A DNA stretch of 64,000 nt, from contig JAGZIN010000001.1 in the NCBI GenBank assembly GCA_018366195.1, positions 16,481 through 80,480 on the forward strand, given 5' to 3'. A program made the translations under genes and the position numbers. How positions within the stretch are numbered: the stretch's first letter is position 1; every line of letters begins with the position of its first letter. The stretch comes from Butyricicoccus pullicaecorum. GTDB lineage: Bacteria > Bacillota > Clostridia > Oscillospirales > Butyricicoccaceae. The notes below the pieces were generated by a model that searched no databases, was not told the origin of the DNA, and saw only the letters and a program-made list of their open reading frames with translations. Shown here piece by piece: positions 53,383 to 64,000 of the stretch.

Positions 53383-53721
53383 TTACGTTTCGGGCAAGAG
53401 CCAGCCGTCATCTTCGTCCCAGCCAAGAAGCACATCTCCAAGGGAAACATACCAGGTTGCATCTTCCAAAATACGGCAGATATCGGTCAGGCAGCATGTC
53501 CAGTATATATAAGATTCGGTATCATGCTCCGGCAAGTTGATGGTGCCGGAAAAAATGATTTCCGGTGTGCTGGGGTCATAGGAATACACAGTGAATGCGT
53601 CAGCTGCATCGCGGTATTCAAAATCGGACTGGTACCGTGCAATCACGATATCAATAGCCGCCGCCTCGTCCTCAGACAATGGCTCGGCGCGGAAGGCACG
53701 GTAGGACAGCACTATGGACAT
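53383..53721 (-). CDS. Hypothetical acidic 112-aa protein
   Basis: AAGGAG RBS. I recognise no family. Confidence 0.35.
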   Translation of the reverse strand: MSIVLSYRAFRAEPLSEDEAAAIDIVIARYQSDFEYRDAADAFTVYSYDPSTPEIIFSGTINLPEHDTESYIYWTCCLTDICRILEDATWYVSLGDVLLGWDEDDGWLLPET

Positions 53722-54051
53722 GGGTTTTGATGGCTCCTTTCGGTGAAACAAAAATACAAAAAGTGGTCTCGCTGTCAGCAAGCTAAGCTTACATATCATT
53801 TCCTATTATACAGAGGTTACAGAGAAATGTCAAAGAGTTTTCAAAAGCTAGAAAGAAAAATAGAATACAGCAGAGATGCAGAGCCATCAGGGTAATATAC
53901 ACTCTTTTCCTTGAAATATTGGGGTTCTATGGGGGATAGTATAACAGATTTTATAGAGATGTCAAGGAAATCGGTAATTTTATGCAAGTATGCGCGGGGG
54001 ACTTGGAACACAGAAAAACAGACCGCTGGAATGCGGTCTGTTGTAATAGAT

Positions 54052-54867
54052 TTAGGAATTGGAGGTCACGGAGGTGATGGTGGGGGTTCGCATGGATTCA
54101 TAAATTTTAATGGTTGGTGCAAGCCATACAGAGCCAGTGCCGCGATATACATTGACAAGCCCTTCTCCGCTGACAGCAGAGCCAATGAGTGTTTTGGCGC
54201 TTCGCTCAACGGTGAAGTCAAGGTTTGCAGAGCGCAGAATGGCAAAGTTTCCATCTACCTTCAGGGTATCATTTTGCAGTTCGATGATATCAATTTCGCT
54301 CATGGGAACAGAGGATTCCAGAATAATAATACCGGGGCCGGTCAGTTCCGTTTGAAACAGACTTTCTCCGCCCAGTGCAGCCGAAGAAATTGTGCGCTGG
54401 GAAACTGCACGGACGCCAACGCTGCCTTGTGCACAGTAGAACATGCCGTCATCTACGATGATGCGTTCATTGGGCGCAAGCTCCAACACAAGAAAGTGCT
54501 GAAAAGAAGGCTCTAAGACCAGCATACCGGTTCCCGTATATTCGGGCTGTGCCATCTGCTCACCAGTGACCGCGCCGCGAAGCATGCGTCCAATTGCATT
54601 GCCTGCCGTAACGCCGCTGACCATTTGTAGATTCCCTTGGAAATAACTCATGGCTCCCCGCTCGATGGTAACCTTTTCATTGTTCAGATATAAGGCAACC
54701 TGACGCGGACGGATATGTTGCTGCTCCATGAAATAGACATCTTGCGCCATATAAGGATTGGTCAGACCACATAGCTTTTCATATTCCAACACTTCAACAC
54801 GCAGTCCGCCGCTTTCAAATTCTTCCAGAACACGGACGTTTTCACGGGTACCAATTGCTTTTCGCAT
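54052..54867 (-). CDS. AIM24/DUF124 family protein
   Basis: Full-length match to the AIM24 pattern (GGESLFQTELTGPGIIILESS). Confidence 0.85.
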   Translation of the reverse strand: MRKAIGTRENVRVLEEFESGGLRVEVLEYEKLCGLTNPYMAQDVYFMEQQHIRPRQVALYLNNEKVTIERGAMSYFQGNLQMVSGVTAGNAIGRMLRGAVTGEQMAQPEYTGTGMLVLEPSFQHFLVLELAPNERIIVDDGMFYCAQGSVGVRAVSQRTISSAALGGESLFQTELTGPGIIILESSVPMSEIDIIELQNDTLKVDGNFAILRSANLDFTVERSAKTLIGSAVSGEGLVNVYRGTGSVWLAPTIKIYESMRTPTITSVTSNS

Positions 54868-54887: not shown

Positions 54888-56297
54888 TTATTGGGGTAAG
54901 AAACCATGTGCAAATTGCCGAATGATTTCATAGGATACTGCAAGATTCAGGTTTTGTCCCTCGGTAAACCCTGATGTGACAATACCAATTAAAAAACCGT
55001 AACGGTCTAAAAGTGCACCACCGGAGCTGCCCGGTGCAGCAGGTGCGGTAAACTGAATCATTTTCGTGTGCTGAAACTGTCGGAAGCCGGAAATGATGCC
55101 GTCAGAGACGGAGTTAAACAGTCCCAGCGGACTGCCAATGGCAAAAACAGACTGCCCCCGTGCAAGGTCAGCGCCTTGATAGAGGGGGATTGGCTTTCCG
55201 TGACAGTCCGGAAGCCGCAGCAAAGCAAGGTCAAAGTCAGGGTGGTATTTCAGCAGCTCGTTGGTCGTGAAAACTGCATCGCTGTTTTCCAGATGGACGG
55301 CATAGGCATCGCCGCCCGCTACGACATGGAAATTGGTTAGAATGATACCGCCCGGGGCGAGCAGCACGCCGGAGCCGGAGGACTTTGGACTTCCGTTTGC
55401 ATCTAAGACCTCAATCATAACAACAGAGGAGGCAAAGCCTGCCAATGTTTCATAATCCAATGGGGCGTGCGCTGTACCAGCAGAGGGGGTTACGGGGGCG
55501 CGGGATACCACAGGATTTGCAGACCGCGTTGACGTCATCGTTTCCGGTCTGGACGCAGATGCCGCAGGGCGGCGGGGATGCTGTGGAATATGTAAGATTT
55601 GCCGCTTTGAAGCAATCGACGTCTGCGGTGCGGACGGCTGTGCGGGTATCGTTGGGGCAAGCCGGTGCAGCAGCGCTTGTGCGCAGTCTGGAGAGCTGGG
55701 CAGACCTTTTATTGCAGCCGCTTGCGGAAAGAGCGCCTGTGTTCCGGCTGGACGCAATACTGCAATATCGCAGCCCAAATGAAGCAGAACAGAGCATACG
55801 AGACGGATTGCTGCATCGGGTTCCCCAATCCAGATACATTTCGGAAAAACAGAAGACGAAGCGGGAAACAGAAGGGGAAGTATGGTGTCCAGTATACAGA
55901 GCAGCTGTGCAGTTTGCGCTTGGCGATTTGGCAATTCTATTTTATCCAGCGCTTGATGCAGTGCTGTATGAAGCTGTGAAGGAGAAAGAAGTGCAGATAC
56001 CTCGGGGAGTGAGAGGTTTGTATCACCTGCAAGCAGGCGCTGTGCCGCAGAGGTGAAGTGTGCCGTGCGCTCCTGTGGCGGAAGTATGTGTGCACCCATG
56101 CAGACAATACAGTGATTGCCTGTGCGGGCGCATGCACTGGAAAGTGTTTCGGCAAGCGTGTCTGGTGATTCCGGCAAACCAAGCCATTCTAAGAAATATA
56201 CGTCCTTGCAGGTATCGTGTATGCGTCCGCGGATATTTAAGAATGCAGGCAGCTGGGAAATTTGCATGGGATTTAAGCGAATGGAGAAAGTTGTCAT
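54888..56297 (-). CDS. Two-domain protein: YceG-N-terminal-like domain, Pro/Gln/Ser-rich linker, C-terminal trypsin-like (S1/DegP-type) serine protease
   Basis: The C-terminus has the His region TNFHVV, the Asp region DLALL and the catalytic-Ser region GSSGGAL. The N-terminal 230 aa align with the N-terminus of the ORF at 59857-62256 (PKCIWIGEP...LGCDIAVLRPAG vs PRILYDGDL...AGCDILLIEPAG). The ORF track's 5' extension to 56543 is low-GC and non-coding-like. Confidence 0.7.
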   Translation of the reverse strand: MTTFSIRLNPMQISQLPAFLNIRGRIHDTCKDVYFLEWLGLPESPDTLAETLSSACARTGNHCIVCMGAHILPPQERTAHFTSAAQRLLAGDTNLSLPEVSALLSPSQLHTALHQALDKIELPNRQAQTAQLLCILDTILPLLFPASSSVFPKCIWIGEPDAAIRLVCSVLLHLGCDIAVLRPAGTQALFPQAAAIKGLPSSPDCAQALLHRLAPTIPAQPSAPQTSIASKRQILHIPQHPRRPAASASRPETMTSTRSANPVVSRAPVTPSAGTAHAPLDYETLAGFASSVVMIEVLDANGSPKSSGSGVLLAPGGIILTNFHVVAGGDAYAVHLENSDAVFTTNELLKYHPDFDLALLRLPDCHGKPIPLYQGADLARGQSVFAIGSPLGLFNSVSDGIISGFRQFQHTKMIQFTAPAAPGSSGGALLDRYGFLIGIVTSGFTEGQNLNLAVSYEIIRQFAHGFLPQ

Positions 56298-56570
56298 AAG
56301 TGGGTCCTCGGTGTTGAGATTTGTCACTATTATAACACAGGTTGAAAAAAGAGAACAGAGGGGGAGCGGAAAATCAAGGCGAAAAATCAAGAAAGGTAAA
56401 ATAACAGTAAAATTTAGAAGTTTAGATTTGCAAAGAAAACGATATCTGTGATATGATAAATACAAAGCATCTATTTTTGTTGGATTTCTCCATGCAATCC
56501 TTTTTGCCGTTTTGCATGGACTTTCAGTCTGTACCGGTACCAAGATGCGAGAAAGAAGGAGAAGTTAGAT

Positions 56571-57533
56571 ATGTCACAATCGGTCTCCCCTTATGCGGTC
56601 GGGGCGCTGCTGTATACACCGGCAAATCGTGAAAATATTGCGCAGAGTGTGATAGCAGGACGTTTTGATACACCTTATTCCCTTGCACTGTGCTTGGAGG
56701 ACAGTATCTGTGATGAGGCAGTTCCGGCAGCGGAATGTCAGGTGATACAGACGCTTGAGCAGATTGCACAGGCAAAGGAGGATTTTTACAAGCCGATGAT
56801 TTTTGTTCGGGTACGTACACCGGAGCAAATTGGACGGCTCTATGCACAGATGGGGCAAGGAACCAAGGTGCTGACCGGCTTTATTGCGCCCAAATGTACG
56901 GCAGATAATCTTCCGGCATATTTGGCGCAGGTGAACACGCTTCGTGTGCATGACAACCTATATCTGATGCCGATTCTGGAAAGTGTTGATTTGGCAGAGC
57001 CGGATACAAGACAGATACAACTGAGAAAAATCAAAGAAATCTTAGATGCCAATCGGGACTGTATCCTGAATGTACGGGTCGGAGGCAATGATTTTTGCCA
57101 TATTTTTGGCTTGCGCCGTCATACCTCGGAAACGATTCATGATATTCGCTGTGTTGACCGGATTTTGAGTGATATCATTACATACTTTTCGCGCGATTAT
57201 GTGGTGTCCGGTCCGGTTTGGGAATATTTTGATGACCCCGAGGGCGCATGGAAAGCAGGACTGCTGCGAGAGGCACAAATGGGGGCACTCAACGGCTTTA
57301 TCGGAAAAACCGTGATTCACCCCAATCAAATTGCAGTGGTCAATCAGGTGCTTCAGGTCAGTGCGGAGGATTATGCAGATGCGCGTGTGATTTTAGAGAT
57401 GTCAGAAAACTCGGATTTTTTAGTTTCTAAAAGTGCTCGCGGCGGAAGAATGAACGAATATAAGACACACACCAAATGGGCACATAAGATTTGTACCCTT
57501 GCAGAAATTTATGGAGTACGGCATGAAGCTTGA
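56571..57533 (+). CDS. HpcH/HpaI aldolase / citrate-lyase-beta (CitE)-like C-C lyase
   Basis: Has the CitE-like LYTPANR motif and the TIM-barrel lyase pattern. Confidence 0.8.
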   Translation: MSQSVSPYAVGALLYTPANRENIAQSVIAGRFDTPYSLALCLEDSICDEAVPAAECQVIQTLEQIAQAKEDFYKPMIFVRVRTPEQIGRLYAQMGQGTKVLTGFIAPKCTADNLPAYLAQVNTLRVHDNLYLMPILESVDLAEPDTRQIQLRKIKEILDANRDCILNVRVGGNDFCHIFGLRRHTSETIHDIRCVDRILSDIITYFSRDYVVSGPVWEYFDDPEGAWKAGLLREAQMGALNGFIGKTVIHPNQIAVVNQVLQVSAEDYADARVILEMSENSDFLVSKSARGGRMNEYKTHTKWAHKICTLAEIYGVRHEA

Positions 57534-58659
57534 CAGAAAACAGCTTGTGCGCACGGCCGTGCGTGAAAATAATACCAAAAGACCGTATTTGCTGGTCAAT
57601 CCTTCTCAGGGAAAGCATGTTCCCGTCGCGCCACACACTGCCTTGCAGCTTTTTTCGGCGCTTGCGGAACAGGTGCAGGAGCAGGTGGGAACCACTGCGC
57701 CTGTGCTCATCATTGCATTTGCAGAGACAGCGACCGCGATTGGTGCGGCAGTTGCCGCAAAGCTCCGCAATCCGACCGTTTTCATGCAGACCACGCGAGA
57801 AGTCACAGACCCAAATCCTTATTTATGTTTTTCGGAAACGCACAGCCATGCAGCGGAACAATATATGACAAGAGACGGACTGGGACCAGCGCTTCGATGG
57901 GCAGAGCATGTGGTTTTTGTAGAAGATGAGGTCACAACGGGCAATACCATTTTGCACCTGATGAATGTGCTGAATGAACAGTATGAAACACAACAGGTGA
58001 CGTTTGGTGTTGCCTCAATCCTGAACGGCATGACAGAGGAATCCAGAGAGCGTTATGCAGCACGCGGGATTTGGACAAGATACCTTTTGCATACAGATAA
58101 TGCAGCGATGGAACGTATGCTGGAACAATATAACTGTCAGGGAGACAAATATCCGGTGTGTACTGCTTATGCGCAGGCGCCGGATATCGTGGAGATTTGG
58201 GGTATGCCGAATATCCGCTCCTGTGCGTGGCGGGCAGATGCGTATCAGCAGGCGTGTGCAGCATTGGCACAGACGATTTGTAATACCGTTCCGACAGATG
58301 CCCAAAATATTTTGGTACTTGGAACAGAGGAGTGCATGTACCCTGGCTTGTGGGCAGGATATCAACTGGAACAGCGGGGGTATACTGTGAGATTTCATGC
58401 AACCACACGCAGCCCAATCCAGCCGAGCACAGAGCCGGACTATCCGCTGCACAGCCGTTACACGCTGCAAAGCCTATATGACAGCAATCGTGTGACTTAT
58501 ATCTATGACCTTACAGCGTATGACTATATCTGCATTGTGACCGATGCACCGGAACCACAGAAAAATGGGCTTTCCAGTTTGCTGTCTGCATTGGAACAGG
58601 CTGGAAATACCAGAATGACAGTGTTTCATTGGAAGTCAGAATATTGGAGGTCAATATGA
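57523..58659 (+). CDS. Phosphoribosyltransferase-domain protein (Ter-cluster associated)
   Basis: Has the VVFVEDEVTTGNT PRPP-binding motif. Confidence 0.8.
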   Translation: MKLDRKQLVRTAVRENNTKRPYLLVNPSQGKHVPVAPHTALQLFSALAEQVQEQVGTTAPVLIIAFAETATAIGAAVAAKLRNPTVFMQTTREVTDPNPYLCFSETHSHAAEQYMTRDGLGPALRWAEHVVFVEDEVTTGNTILHLMNVLNEQYETQQVTFGVASILNGMTEESRERYAARGIWTRYLLHTDNAAMERMLEQYNCQGDKYPVCTAYAQAPDIVEIWGMPNIRSCAWRADAYQQACAALAQTICNTVPTDAQNILVLGTEECMYPGLWAGYQLEQRGYTVRFHATTRSPIQPSTEPDYPLHSRYTLQSLYDSNRVTYIYDLTAYDYICIVTDAPEPQKNGLSSLLSALEQAGNTRMTVFHWKSEYWRSI

Positions 58660-59705
58660 ACAGTAGCTATCGTACCGAAGATGTGATCTTACTTTTGAAA
58701 GATATTACAGGGCAGGTGGAGCCGATGTCCACCCAAGAACGGGAAAAACAGATTCAAGCAGGGATATCCTATTGCGAAATGCTCCCAAGAGAATATGTAC
58801 CCAGCCCGAATTATTTGGAGGCCTATCAGCAGGCACTGCGCAATGAAACCGACCGTACAGCTGCGGCAGTCCGTACCTGTGCAGAGCGTATTTATCAGGA
58901 TAAGGGAAACAAAGTTGTTTTGGTATCGTTGGCACGAGCGGGTGTGCCGATTGGTATTTTGCTCAAGTGGTATTTGCGCAGACGATATGGCATAGAAGTA
59001 CCGCATTATGGAATTTCCATCATTCGGGGACGCGGCATCGACCACAATGCAATGCGTGTGCTATTGGAACAACACGCACCGGAGAGCTTGCAGTTTGTAG
59101 ACGGCTGGATTGGAAAAGGTGCGATTTTAACCGAGTTACAGCGCGAGCTTGCTGGATATTCGGGGGTCAGTGCACAGCTTGCTGTTTTATCCGACCCGGC
59201 TGGTCTGACAGACCTGTGCGGAACCCATGAAGATTTTCTGATTCCAAGCTCCTGCCTCAATTGTACGGTATCTGGTCTCATCAGCCGCACCTTCCTGCGC
59301 AGGGATATCATTGGCGTATCGGATTTTCACGGCGCTGCCTATTATGGAGAGCTTGCAGCACAGGATCGTTCCTATGAATTTTTAGATGCGATTGCAGCAC
59401 GCTTTGAGAACGCTCCCAAACTGCCGGAGATTTCGCTGATACAGAGCGGACTGGAGGAAACAGAGCAAATCGCAAGGCACTTTGGAATCGAAGATATCAA
59501 TTTGGTAAAGCCGGGAATCGGTGAGGCGACACGTGTGCTGCTGCGCCGCCTGCCATGGAAAATGCTTGTGCGGGAGGATATGCAGCAGGATCCTGCTTTG
59601 GCACATCTTTATCAGCTTGCACGGGAAAAGGGGGTTGCGGTGGAACCGTATCCGCTGCAAAATTACAAGGCATGCGGAATCATTCAGCAGCTGCGAGATG
59701 TATAA
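58656..59705 (+). CDS. StiP-family (PELOTA/PRTase-like) protein
   Basis: The ATG overlaps the preceding stop (ATATGA). My assignment to the StiP family is from memory of TerD-associated clusters, at moderate confidence. Confidence 0.6.
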   Translation: MNSSYRTEDVILLLKDITGQVEPMSTQEREKQIQAGISYCEMLPREYVPSPNYLEAYQQALRNETDRTAAAVRTCAERIYQDKGNKVVLVSLARAGVPIGILLKWYLRRRYGIEVPHYGISIIRGRGIDHNAMRVLLEQHAPESLQFVDGWIGKGAILTELQRELAGYSGVSAQLAVLSDPAGLTDLCGTHEDFLIPSSCLNCTVSGLISRTFLRRDIIGVSDFHGAAYYGELAAQDRSYEFLDAIAARFENAPKLPEISLIQSGLEETEQIARHFGIEDINLVKPGIGEATRVLLRRLPWKMLVREDMQQDPALAHLYQLAREKGVAVEPYPLQNYKACGIIQQLRDV

Positions 59706-59856
59706 GAATATTGTCAAATATTTACAAACTGTAAACATTTGAAATGCCCCCATGCCATGTATTGAAAAACGACGATAAAAATGATAAAGTGATAGTATCA
59801 TTTGACATGTTACTGAATGAAAGTGAAATCATAGGGTAAGGTCAGGGGCTTAGATT

Positions 59857-62256
59857 ATGCAAACACGATTGCAGTTAACAAAATTTGATGATTTTTGGAA
59901 ACCTTTGAGTGCGCGGCAGCCAGCGGGAGTTTATTTTTGCAGGATTGCCGGATATGGTCCAGACCTTGTGCACTTTTTGGAACAGGCGATGCAGAAACGC
60001 ACACAAATGCCAATGCGCATCACCGGAAAGCTGCAAAATCCGAATGGCAACCAGCTGAGTTATTTACAGAGTGTGTTGGGGGACACGTTTCAATGTGACA
60101 CAGCTTTTTTTGAAGCACAGCTTGTAAAGTGGCTGCCGCGTTTGAACCAGACACAGCGCACCCAAATTGCAGAGGCAATCGGTCAGGTGCTTGAAACACA
60201 GCGCGCACAGGGGAAAAACGATAATATGCTGCGCAATGCGTATATAAAGTTTATGTGCTGGCTGTATTATCGCTTTGAACAGCTCCTGCATCTGTTGGGG
60301 AAAGACCCGCTGCCGCGTATCTTATATGATGGGGATTTAAGCAGTCATGAGTTTCAGTTGTTTTGTATTCTGGCTCGGGCAGGCTGTGACATTCTGCTGA
60401 TTGAACCGGCAGGAGATGCGCAGTATCAAAAGCTTGACCCGCAGAATCAACAGTCTGCGCTGTGTGCATGGGCGGGACATGCACCCTTTCCACCTGATTT
60501 TTCGTTGGAGCAGATGGTAAAGACCTATCGTCCGCCTGCACAGAGTTCGCGTCCGGCTGAGACACCCGCCCGTCCCCAAACCGTGCAGCCGTCTCCACGT
60601 CCGGCGGCGCCGATTCGCACACAACAGACGGCGAACCCACAGTCGGCAGATACACGGCAGAGAGCGCAGCCGCAAAGACAGCGCACACCAGCAGAGCTGT
60701 TTCCAGATGCACCTGTGATTGCGCCGAATACATGGCTTTCCGGAAACCTGCCAGCCGATTCCCTGAAGGAGCCTGCCAGCCGCGGAGAGAATGACGACTA
60801 TATCTATACCATGTTTGTTCGTATATTGGGTGTGGAGGACAAATCTTCTTATGAACGGGATTTGTTTTTGTGGCGAAAAAAATTGGAGGATACGGGAAGG
60901 CATGTGACCGTTTTGGAGGAGTTTTCCCTGCCAACGCCAGAGGAAACCGCGAGGGTTGCACGCAGCAATGCGCAAAGTGGTGCACAGGTCATCTCCAGTC
61001 TGCTGCCGATGCTCCAGCCAACGGCAAACCATCGGCTAGATGCTGCGGTCGGCCGTGCATTTGTGGAGATTTTGACCGAGCTGGACAGGGAACATGAGCC
61101 TCCCATGCGCATCAAGAACAAAGGTGTGTATCTCGTATGCTGGTTTAATCGTTATTTTCGATTGCTTTTTGAGGGATACAGTGCAGGAAAGCTGCCAATA
61201 TTGTTTTATTTTGGCCTTTGCCATACCGCCTTTGAAGCCTTATTCCTTCGTTTTCTGGCAAAGCTTCCCATTGATGTGCTGGAAATTTATCCAGAGCAGC
61301 CAGAGCCTTGCTGCCTTTCGGACAAGCTGTTATTTGAGCGCATCTATCCAAATACCATGCACGTAGCACATTTTCCGGAGTCTGCCGATGCCGTTTCCTA
61401 TCAGACAGCAGCCTACCATGCAGAGCAGGAGCTGACGGAAACCCTATATCAGGATTCAGGTTTGTACCGTGCGCATCAATATCAAAAGGCTGCGGCGGTT
61501 TCGCTGCAAACCATGTGCGAGGAAATTTTTATTTTATGGGATAAAGAGGCGCTGTATCGCCCGGGCTTTGAGGTTGTAGATGATACGGTACTGGTACCCG
61601 TTTTGACTGCAAAGGTCAGCGGTGTAAAAAATCGGGACACCAGTGCTTATTGGTCGCAGGTCAAGCGCATGGTAAATACAGATACCATTTGCATGACACG
61701 CCTGCCTTATATGCAGCCAGTCGAGGATACGCGTCTCAATCCGGTATCCTTTATTAAGAATAGAAAGCTGCAAAGAGAGGCACTGAAAAACAGTCCTGCC
61801 TATCCTTATGGGCTGCTTCGCTCGGAGGTACAGGATTTCCTGTTGGACAAGGTGCAAATGCTGTTGGATTCTGGATTGATTCGAGGCACCTTTTCCCAGG
61901 GAATGGAATATAAGATTTTATCGGTTGCCATGAATCTGCCCAAGGAAATCGTTCGCATATTGCAGAAGGCGGATTTTACACAGGCTGTTCCCAAAGTCGC
62001 TGTTGTGGCAACAGGAGAACAGTCCTGCAGCTTGGAGGACAGTATCCTTCTGGCACTTTTGCACAATGCCTGTTTTGATGTCGTGCTGTTCGTGCCAACC
62101 GGATATCAAATCATCGAGAAGTATTATACAGAGCCATTTTTTACCGAGCATCAGGCGGGCGAATATCTGTATGATTTGCAGCCGCCTTACCTGTCTGCGT
62201 CCTCACCCAGCGGTGAGGGGATTTTGAGTCGATTCTTTAGGAGGGGTCACACATGA
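59857..62256 (+). CDS. YceG-like protein (B. subtilis yceG homolog in TerD/TelA operons)
   Basis: 799 aa. It lies immediately upstream of telA and terD, as in the yceCDEFGH operon. Its N-terminal domain is shared with the protease fusion at 54888-56297. Confidence 0.7.
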   Translation: MQTRLQLTKFDDFWKPLSARQPAGVYFCRIAGYGPDLVHFLEQAMQKRTQMPMRITGKLQNPNGNQLSYLQSVLGDTFQCDTAFFEAQLVKWLPRLNQTQRTQIAEAIGQVLETQRAQGKNDNMLRNAYIKFMCWLYYRFEQLLHLLGKDPLPRILYDGDLSSHEFQLFCILARAGCDILLIEPAGDAQYQKLDPQNQQSALCAWAGHAPFPPDFSLEQMVKTYRPPAQSSRPAETPARPQTVQPSPRPAAPIRTQQTANPQSADTRQRAQPQRQRTPAELFPDAPVIAPNTWLSGNLPADSLKEPASRGENDDYIYTMFVRILGVEDKSSYERDLFLWRKKLEDTGRHVTVLEEFSLPTPEETARVARSNAQSGAQVISSLLPMLQPTANHRLDAAVGRAFVEILTELDREHEPPMRIKNKGVYLVCWFNRYFRLLFEGYSAGKLPILFYFGLCHTAFEALFLRFLAKLPIDVLEIYPEQPEPCCLSDKLLFERIYPNTMHVAHFPESADAVSYQTAAYHAEQELTETLYQDSGLYRAHQYQKAAAVSLQTMCEEIFILWDKEALYRPGFEVVDDTVLVPVLTAKVSGVKNRDTSAYWSQVKRMVNTDTICMTRLPYMQPVEDTRLNPVSFIKNRKLQREALKNSPAYPYGLLRSEVQDFLLDKVQMLLDSGLIRGTFSQGMEYKILSVAMNLPKEIVRILQKADFTQAVPKVAVVATGEQSCSLEDSILLALLHNACFDVVLFVPTGYQIIEKYYTEPFFTEHQAGEYLYDLQPPYLSASSPSGEGILSRFFRRGHT

Positions 62257-63380
62257 GTATTCATTTTGGTTCTCGTCCACCAGAGCCTGCGGTGCAGGCT
62301 GAGATGACAACAGAGATTGTACCATACAACATTCAAGATGACCGCGAGCAGATGACCAAGCAGCTCACCGGCACCAAGGAGGTCGATGATATCGCAAGCA
62401 CCATTGAGGTGTACAATTTGGAAACGATTGTCGGCTTTGGCGGAGAGGTCGCCGGAGAAATTGCAAAATGCTCCGATGCGGTGCTGAGCGGCATGAATAT
62501 GAGCCAAATTGATGATTCGGGTGCAATGCTCAATGCACTGAGCAAAATTATGGATAAATTCGACATTGATGAGATTCGGGACGATCCCGGTTTCTTTGGA
62601 CGATTGTTTTCCAATATGCGCAAGCAGCTGGACAAGATTCTGGATAAATACCGCACCATGGGCGATGAGGTGGATAAGATTTTCGTGCAGCTCAAGCAGT
62701 ATGAATCGGAAATCAAGGAATCCAACCGTAAGCTGGAGCAGATGTTTGAGACCAATGTGAATTATTATCATGAACTGGTAAAATATATTTTGGCAGGCGA
62801 ACAGGGCTGTCAGGAAATTGCTGCATACATAGAACAGCGGCGCGGCGATTTGCAGCAAACCGGTGACCAGTCCATTCAGTTTGAGCTGCAAACGCTGGAG
62901 CAGGCACAGATGATGCTGGAGCAGCGCACACACGACCTGCGCATTGCAGAAAATGTTGCGATGCAGTCCATTCCGATGCTCAAAACGATGCAGTTTGCCA
63001 ATATGAATCTGGTTCGAAAAATCAATTCTGCCTTTATTATCACGCTGCCTGTCTTTAAGCAGGCATTGGCACAGGCGATTTTGCTCAAGCGGCAGCGTAT
63101 TCAAGCAGAAGCGATGAGCGCATTAGATGAAAAGACCAATGAAATGCTGCTGCGCAATGCACAGAATACAGCGGAGCAGTCTCGTGTGACCGCACAGCTT
63201 GCATCGGGCAGCTCGGTTAAAATCGAGACGCTGGAGCAGACTTGGAAAACCATTGTGCAGGGCATTGCAGACACACGCAAGATTCAAGATGATGCACGGC
63301 ATCAGAGAGAACAGGATACCGAGCGTCTGCGTGCGATTCAGGGTGAATTTGAACAGATGATGCGCGGCGGACAGGCTTAA
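62253..63380 (+). CDS. telA: Toxic anion resistance protein TelA (YceH/KlaA family)
   Basis: 375 aa coiled-coil with the TelA pattern. Translationally coupled (ATGA overlap) to the YceG-like gene. Confidence 0.85.
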
Positions 63381-63421
63381 CGGTTCGCTGTCCAATCTGT
63401 CATAAAAAAGGAGAGATAATT

Positions 63422-64000
63422 ATGCCAATCAGCTTGCAAAAAGGACAGAAAGTAGACTTAACCAAGGGAAATCCAAGTCTTCGACATGTGCTTGTCGGTT
63501 TGGGCTGGGACGTCAATAAATATGATGGCGGCTTCGACTTTGACCTTGATGCCAGTGCTTTTCTGCTCGGTGCGAATGGACAGACTCCGGATACAGATGC
63601 CTTTGTATTTTATGGGAATCTCAAACATTCGTCAGGCTCTGTGGAGCACATGGGAGATAACCTGACCGGTGAAGGGGACGGCGATGATGAGCAGATTGTA
63701 GTGGACTTGTCTGCCATTCCGCAGAATATAGAAAAAATCGCCTTTACCGTGACCATTTACGAGGCGGAAAAGCGCCGTCAGAACTTTGGACAGGTTGCAA
63801 ATGCCTATATCCGCATTGTGGACAGCGATACCAATCAGGAGCTGATCCGCTATGATTTGGGTGAGGATTTCTCGATTGAAACCGCAATCGTTGTCGGTGA
63901 AATTTACAGACACAATGGCGAATGGAAGTTTAATGCAGTTGGCTCTGGATTCCAAGGCGGACTTGCAGCGCTTTGTGCCAATTACGGAATCGAAACCTGC
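63422..64000 (+). CDS. terD: TerD-family tellurium-resistance/stress protein (3' end may run past the window)
   Basis: [13 protein letters not shown]...GLGWDVN...[10 protein letters not shown]...[15 protein letters not shown] is the TerD Ca-binding fold. AAGGAGAG RBS. Confidence 0.85.

Follow-up and report, generated by a model that had tools for sequence, protein, structure and literature searches.

A diverged YceG domain fused to an HtrA-like serine protease beside a Ter/YceG/TelA gene cluster in Butyricicoccus pullicaecorum

The window considered here, a stretch of 64,000 nucleotides from Butyricicoccus pullicaecorum, carries a minus-strand gene for a serine protease of 469 amino acids (aa) and, a few kilobases away on the plus strand, the gene yceG of a Ter-type cluster. 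An earlier note on this DNA had described both open reading frames (ORFs), and both are present in the ORF list. Exact matches for window proteins were found in MBS5164205.1 and MBS5164209.1 from Butyricicoccus pullicaecorum; the first of these is the protease, and its NCBI label is “trypsin-like peptidase domain-containing protein.” The main finding is that the first part of this protease, aa ~14-190, is by profile comparison a diverged YceG domain (PF14266-like), homologous to repeats 1 and 2 of YceG itself. The parts of the two proteins that carry this finding are as follows.

54888..56297, minus strand: protease gene, a YceG-domain/S1C fusion of 469 aa (ORF list, Pfam, exact cluster look-up and family alignment)
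55728..56258, minus strand: diverged YceG domain (PF14266-like), aa ~14-190 (Pfam at 18.6 bits, hhalign and the AlphaFold2 model)
55758..55847, minus strand: most conserved block of the N-domain, FPKCIWIGEPD...LGCDIAV (joint alignment; the only segment that aligns pairwise)
55488..55727, minus strand: disordered linker of ~80 residues, aa 191-270, rich in Ala, Pro, Ser and Arg (AlphaFold2 confidence and composition)
55566..55598, minus strand: basic and proline-rich linker motif ILHIPQHPRRP, aa 234-244 (family alignment)
54891..55487, minus strand: S1C (HtrA-like) protease domain of the trypsin fold (Pfam Trypsin_2, E 2e-27, 97 bits)
59857..62256, plus strand: yceG of the Ter-operon type, 799 aa, with three tandem YceG domains (Pfam PF14266)

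The name YceG is used for two different proteins. The one meant here is the Bacillus Ter-operon protein (PF14266) and not the YceG of Escherichia coli, which is MltG; the collision is one of names only, and neither the protease nor the window’s YceG matched the MltG/YceG-like model (PF02618) in the Pfam scan. When the pieces of YceG are scanned separately, PF14266 is found three times, each time above its curated gathering cutoff of 25 bits: at 59857-60456 (aa 12-200, E 1e-13), at 60778-61449 (aa ~308-531, E 1.6e-31), and at 61510-62157 (aa 552-767, E 1.4e-42), with repeat 3 the best of the repeats against the model. On these matches, YceG is a triple tandem repeat of the domain that it has in common with the N-terminus of the protease, and it looks like a scaffold or sensor made of three repeats. 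The earlier note had taken the C-terminal parts of the two proteins for two different effectors attached to a common module. This part of the proposal has to be given up, since the remainder of YceG consists of two further copies of PF14266, leaving the protease as the only recognizable effector.

Both proteins do have the low-complexity linker that had been described behind the shared domain, in each case rich in Pro, Ala, Gln, Ser, and Arg. In YceG it takes the form of a Pro/Gln/Ala/Arg-rich insertion of ~50 residues between repeats 1 and 2 (60457-60756, plus strand, aa ~222-285). The insertion is lineage specific, being missing from five YceG orthologues, and in composition it resembles the protease linker of the same genome.

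The likeness of the two N-termini had been seen by eye, and it is only in part that a pairwise comparison bears it out. BLASTP aligns aa 152-274 of the protease with aa 153-264 of YceG (E 2e-5), partly through the low-complexity linker. With both linkers removed, a Smith-Waterman alignment scores 58 compared to 29.2 +/- 4.5 for 2000 shuffles, of which one reaches that score (p ~1.4e-4 from a Gumbel fit). This alignment spans only aa 141-192 of the protease, which is the block quoted in the earlier note, whereas the hydrophobic blocks said to match upstream of it cannot be demonstrated pairwise. A pairwise match of about 50 residues, and a BLAST match that runs into a low-complexity linker, are what one would expect if the resemblance were due to chance, to low complexity, or to a recent and meaningless duplication of the 5' end of yceG. 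The Pfam result points the same way at first sight, since the window protein falls below the PF14266 threshold, with 16.9 bits for the full-length protein and 18.6 bits (E 0.0015) for the N-domain alone. The match does, however, sit at profile positions homologous to those matched by the N-terminus of YceG.

It is the relatives of the protease that decide the matter. When 1.84 billion representative proteins were searched exhaustively with phmmer, only 12 relatives came up. All of the full-length ones (P0070, P0071, P0073, P0075, P0077, P0079, and P0080) consist of an N-domain, a linker, and a Trypsin_2 domain, and six of these seven exceed the PF14266 cutoff, at 29-72 bits, with P0070 below it. 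The best match in the family belongs to P0079 (E 7e-20, profile positions 31-220). Five further members were derived from genomes; all five carry YceG_bac and Trypsin_2, and two of them pass the cutoff. Since 8 of the 13 family members scanned pass at 29-72 bits, the N-domain in the window is a diverged homologue that the Pfam model overlooks.

Word-indexed searches added little to this family. With the protease N-domain as the query, the only match, on a long-read contig (P0001, at locus L001), was the same gene in a frameshifted copy, and a second search with the family alignment as the query returned only two proteins. The L001 contig (ENA ERZ27273242 contig_2581) holds the same cluster from a close relative, with the genes for YceG, StiP, the lyase, and the protease N-domain split. 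Splitting of this kind is a usual sign of frameshifts left in uncorrected long reads, and P0001 is therefore not counted as an independent homologue.

Single profiles were too weak for the window protease. A HMMER profile built from the YceG N-domain alone gave it 3.6 bits over 38 residues, and a profile-profile comparison was therefore required. With hhalign, a profile of eight fusion N-domains matched a 70-sequence profile of the YceG N-domain with a probability of 97.9% (E 4e-13, 176 columns). A larger, 14-sequence fusion profile matched YceG repeat 1 at 98.5% (E 3e-15, 177 columns), repeat 2 at 98.7% (E 4e-16, 161 columns), and repeat 3 at 10.9% (E 0.0028, 40 columns). Even the window sequence by itself reached 78.6% against the 70-sequence profile (E 1.7e-5, 167 columns). 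The earlier note had proposed to drop the idea of a shared domain should the probability come out below 50%; the values obtained, 78.6% to 98.7%, uphold it, and the match at 97.9-98.7% extends over nearly the whole domain.

These comparisons leave the idea of chance or of an empty duplication scarcely credible. The profile-profile match of 98% covers ~175 columns that lie outside the linker, and together with the genome-derived members that pass the Pfam cutoff it refutes that reading. The family is also an old one. In at least three Clostridia families, its N-domains have 21-41% identity to that of the window, which is itself only ~18% identical to domain 1 of its own YceG, and the ORF of 469 aa is intact in 10 of the 15 listed members of its 90%-identity cluster, the other five being shorter fragments, mostly on short contigs.

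Repeat 3 stands somewhat apart. In hhalign comparisons of small profiles, its likeness to repeats 1 and 2 and to the protease N-domain is limited to the PK...G...GxD motif (probabilities of 0.5-20%). For this reason, the PF14266 family may contain two domain subtypes.

An AlphaFold2 model of the N-domain, built from the joint alignment, is confident, with a predicted local distance difference test (pLDDT) score of 83.8 and a predicted template-modeling score (pTM) of 0.83. The predicted fold is alpha/beta (strand 35-39, helix 45-59, strand 63-67, helices 75-89, 106-119, and 125-143, strand 153-157, helix 162-173, strand 177-182). Its four main strands alternate with helices, and the conserved beta-alpha-beta unit PK-x4-G ... 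G-C-D lies at the end. The motif P152-K153...G158...G175-x-D177 is common to the protease and all three YceG domains. In the joint alignment of 46 sequences, G175 and D177 are invariant and P152, K153, and G158 nearly so; the window protease has all five.

A second motif, in the middle of the domain, is broken in the window protein. All other family members, as well as the YceG repeats, have a segment S-M-x-R-N-x2-I-K with a near-invariant Asn, continued as L-L-x-W. The window protease has a gap of seven residues at this place (~55900-55925, minus strand, aa ~125-131) and lacks both the Asn and the Trp. The closest full-length relative, P0070, has kept the Asn and lost the Trp. As the length of 469 aa is shared by 10 of the 15 cluster members, the gap is not an assembly error.

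The pattern of conserved residues raises the question of whether the domain binds something. R37, K153, and D177 are polar and conserved in the fusion and YceG domains, and most members also have the Asn. One could therefore consider a ligand sensor, in which the YceG domain would bind a small molecule (e.g., the predicted nucleoside-like product of the PRTase, StiP, and C-C lyase enzymes encoded next to it) and would switch the protease on allosterically, as a peptide does on the PDZ domain of DegS; the three repeats of YceG would then bind the same ligand. Several observations speak against it: the window protein has deleted the very segment that holds the conserved Asn, together with the nearby Trp, the alignments of the N-domain and YceG contain no Walker A or Walker B motif or other recognizable nucleotide motif, and a Foldseek search against the PDB with the model gave nothing significant. 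PDB sequence searches likewise gave no solved relative of the N-domain. The entry 2k5w came up with E 0.34, but the match lies in the region of the inter-domain linker and was taken as chance.

Between the two domains, the full-length AlphaFold2 model has a stretch of very low confidence (pLDDT <50 at aa 192-267), flanked by two confident domains at aa 14-190 and 270-469. Throughout the protease family the linker is long and of low complexity, and it is unalignable except for one short motif with the consensus ~LRxPPxPRR, in which P238 is invariant. In the window protein, this motif could be a docking or a processing site. Processing would be the basis of another possible mechanism, in which the N-domain and linker form an inhibitory prodomain; cleavage of the linker, perhaps at PxxPRR, would then free an active protease and, separately, a single YceG domain. 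A long disordered linker with a single motif conserved across the family, followed by a protease domain that looks catalytically competent, would suit such a mechanism. Still, it is unlikely, since in the model neither the linker nor the N-domain touches the active site, the close linkage to yceG (see below) would go unexplained, and an Arg/Pro-rich motif is, to our knowledge, not an obvious cleavage site for proteases of the HtrA type.

The catalytic domain had been called DegP-like, and this is true of the domain only. It has the trypsin fold of the HtrA, DegP, and DegS proteases (MEROPS S1C), the His-Asp-Ser triad, and the oxyanion motif GSSGG. The triad residues H324, D356, and S425 are invariant in an alignment of 44 sequences, and from these residues the domain looks catalytically competent. 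Its best solved relatives are Deg1, DegQ, and HtrA2 (E 5e-21 to 1e-16), with AlgW and DegS also found. Pfam finds no PDZ domain in the protein, in which the Trypsin_2 match ends at aa 439 and only ~30 of the 469 residues follow, and the NCBIfam cutoffs for HtrA, DegP, and DegS are far off, the best being TIGR02037 with 93 bits against 416. Neither the sequence nor the AlphaFold2 models have a hydrophobic N-terminal segment that would serve as a signal peptide or membrane anchor, although no dedicated signal-peptide predictor was applied. Because the N-terminus is instead a soluble alpha/beta domain, the fusion protease is predicted to be cytoplasmic. This means that only the catalytic domain is common to the fusion and the HtrA proteases, and that the regulatory domain of the fusion would be N-terminal and of another fold. 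By analogy with DegS, the fusion is plausibly under the control of the non-catalytic domain attached to it. The PADLOC models gave no evidence of a catalogued defence system, with only the protease domain matching, to RT-Protease_XI.

The genes around the protease and yceG are listed next.

54052..54867, minus strand: AIM24-family gene (Pfam AIM24, E 3e-40)
56298..56570, no strand: divergent intergenic region of 273 bp between the protease and C-C lyase genes (ORF coordinates)
56571-57533, plus strand: C-C_Bond_Lyase gene of the Ter biosynthetic module (Pfam)
57499-58659, plus strand: PRTase_2+TRSP gene of the same module (Pfam)
58629-59705, plus strand: StiP+PELOTA_1 gene of the same module (Pfam)
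62253..63380, plus strand: telA, a toxic anion resistance protein of the YceH type (Pfam TelA, E 5e-100)
63422..64000, plus strand: terD, running off the end of the window (translation; Pfam TerD, E 8e-88)

On the minus strand, the start of the protease is the ATG at 56297 and not the TTG further upstream that gives an ORF of 551 aa, since the motif MxxSIRxNPM opens all of the homologues. The AIM24 gene follows 20 bp downstream and is itself followed by a terminator-like hairpin (54042-54017, terminator scan). Just past this hairpin is an ORF of 138 aa (53383-53799, minus strand) that matches nothing in Pfam or NCBIfam; upstream of it, at 53805-53833, is a perfect 12/12 match to a sigma-70-like promoter (TTGACA-17-TATAAT).

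On the plus strand, the three genes of the biosynthetic module (56571..59705) have Pfam E values between 5e-100 and 3e-42. The stop of yceG and the start of telA overlap by 4 bp (62253-62256), the lyase/PRTase and PRTase/StiP pairs overlap too, and the overlaps suggest translational coupling along the array. The gene terD starts 41 bp past telA and is cut by the window’s end, so that the Ter cluster must extend further. The genes for TerD, TelA, YceG, PRTase_2/TRSP, StiP/PELOTA_1, and the C-C lyase are all found within 56571-64000, and no ATP-grasp or HAD gene is seen in the part of the cluster that lies inside the window. Together with AIM24, this is the gene set described for Ter systems with a biosynthetic module (Anantharaman, Iyer and Aravind 2012, as cited in PMC9240799 and PMC5822837).

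The protease gene and yceG had been placed on the two sides of a single bidirectional control region, but the coordinates do not agree with this. The region 56298-56570 separates the protease gene from that of the C-C lyase, and yceG, the fourth gene of the plus-strand array, lies 3.3 kb beyond it. Within the region there is one promoter-like site (56428-56457, plus strand), recognized by its match to the consensus only.

The proposal that the two proteins act in the same pathway fares better. A survey for other fusions of the N-domain, in which one genome per species was scanned, found seven more fusion genes (L002-L008), in Lachnospiraceae, Oscillospiraceae, Flavonifractor, and Roseburia. 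In six of these seven genomes (L002 and L004-L008), the fusion gene belongs to a Ter/YceG/TelA cluster, and in four of them yceG is the next gene downstream on its strand. The arrangements are as follows.

L002: as in the window
L004: same-strand fusion gene immediately before a three-repeat yceG, with a gap of 163 bp
L005 and L006: fusion gene upstream of yceG, same strand, with gaps of 12 bp, then telA; L005 also has terD (Pfam-confirmed), two more TerD-sized ORFs, and a P-type ATPase
L008: fusion gene upstream of yceG, same strand, with a gap of 692 bp, then telA
L007: fusion gene after the PRTase and StiP genes, with terD paralogues near and an AIM24-like sequence downstream
L003: unrelated surroundings

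On the sequences found, the fusion family is rare and specific to Clostridia. Its gene context bears on the ligand sensor from both sides. The fusion gene adjoins the biosynthetic module in the window and in L002, L005, L006, and L007, which speaks for it. For L004 and L008, on the other hand, no such module was detected within 10 kb upstream (the downstream flank covered is shorter), which argues that the linkage is to yceG (and to telA in L008) rather than to the synthesis of a metabolite. Taken with the lost Asn segment, this leaves ligand sensing a possible but doubtful role for the domain.

Two of these loci have features of their own. After the terD paralogues, L005 (14066-18567) and L007 (1894-5886) encode a P-type cation ATPase with Cation_ATPase_N and Cation_ATPase_C domains; Pfam confirms one of the neighboring terD paralogues in L005 and two in L007. 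This hints at a link of these Ter clusters to the transport of cations, possibly Ca2+. The fusion in L008 (9470-10579, Roseburia sp. CAG:303, 369 aa) seems to retain no more of the YceG domain than its C-terminal half (profile positions 70-189), with GIVII in place of the GxD motif. Either its start has been set wrongly or the domain is decaying.

The reading that is preferred here, with a probability of roughly 0.55, is that the N-domain is a homotypic docking or regulatory module that places the protease on a complex of YceG and TelA (and TerD). The YceG domain of the protease would pack against the repeats of YceG, a protein in which three tandem copies of the domain already lie next to one another. 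With the protease recruited in this way, proteolysis of a cluster component or a client would be coupled to the stress state sensed by the complex. In this arrangement, the N-domain would take the place of PDZ as the control element of an HtrA-type protease. Docking is favored over ligand sensing because YceG is built of tandem repeats of the domain and because the fusion and yceG genes are nearly overlapping in some genomes. A structural role also fits better than a precise ligand pocket because the window copy has lost the Asn segment and the Trp, yet keeps the PK...G...GxD core and is confidently folded by AlphaFold2.

The comparison with the Bacillus-type YceG (yceCDEFGH/Ter, with the partner YceH/TelA) shows how far the likeness goes. 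The N-domain is homologous to repeats 1 and 2, shares PK...G...GxD, and is encoded in the same clusters, beside telA and terD. Unlike YceG, the fusion has one copy of the domain rather than three, a protease is attached to it, and the copy in the window is under the Pfam cutoff and without the conserved segment that holds Asn and Trp.

A number of points weigh against docking. What is known of YceG function comes only from mutant phenotypes, namely the tellurite and peroxide resistance phenotypes of yceGH mutants of B. anthracis (cited in PMC11994780 and PMC6813211). The conserved R37, K153, and D177 could equally well form a ligand site. The full-length AlphaFold2 model has a pTM of 0.57, with no fixed mutual orientation of the two domains, and it shows no docking of the linker motif, where pLDDT is low. 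The linkage also has its sole exception in L003 (9446-10894, uncultured Lachnospiraceae), in which dus, birA, and ABC-transporter genes surround the fusion and no Ter genes are found within 10 kb. The searchable literature makes no mention of a serine protease with a YceG domain; Anantharaman 2012 lies outside that search, so there may be an earlier mention.

A bolder version of the docking idea would be that the YceG domains are degenerate, nucleotide-free descendants of P-loop/AAA+-like domains that assemble in rings or stacks. YceG and the fusion would then co-assemble as a self-compartmentalized cytoplasmic protease, similar to Lon or FtsH and gated by TelA/TerD as the stress sensor. This is a long shot, as the resemblance to the Lon and FtsH AAA+ proteases and to P-loop NTPases is one of general fold class only, and the domain of the fusion and of YceG has neither Walker A (GxxxxGK[ST]) nor Walker B. 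If true, it would provide a concrete proteolytic output for the long-enigmatic Ter/TelA system, which confers resistance to tellurite, colicins, and phages.

Both of the component domains were already known, and Pfam has precomputed PF14266 on at least one member of the family. Current annotation overlooks the YceG domain in the diverged members, as in the window protein with its label of a trypsin-like peptidase. With only 12 relatives in 1.84 billion proteins, confined to gut Clostridia, the family is of limited general importance. The clusters that it belongs to, on the other hand, are widespread, and Ter, TelA, and YceG affect resistance to tellurite and oxidants as well as virulence; neither YceG nor TelA has a known biochemical mechanism. 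With its YceG domain joined to an intact protease, the fusion is a “Rosetta-stone” link, from which YceG is predicted to be connected with proteolysis either physically or through regulation, and the protease activity would give a domain of unknown function an enzymatic read-out that can be assayed. In these gut Clostridia, the fusion links a predicted cytoplasmic protease to the Ter stress system.

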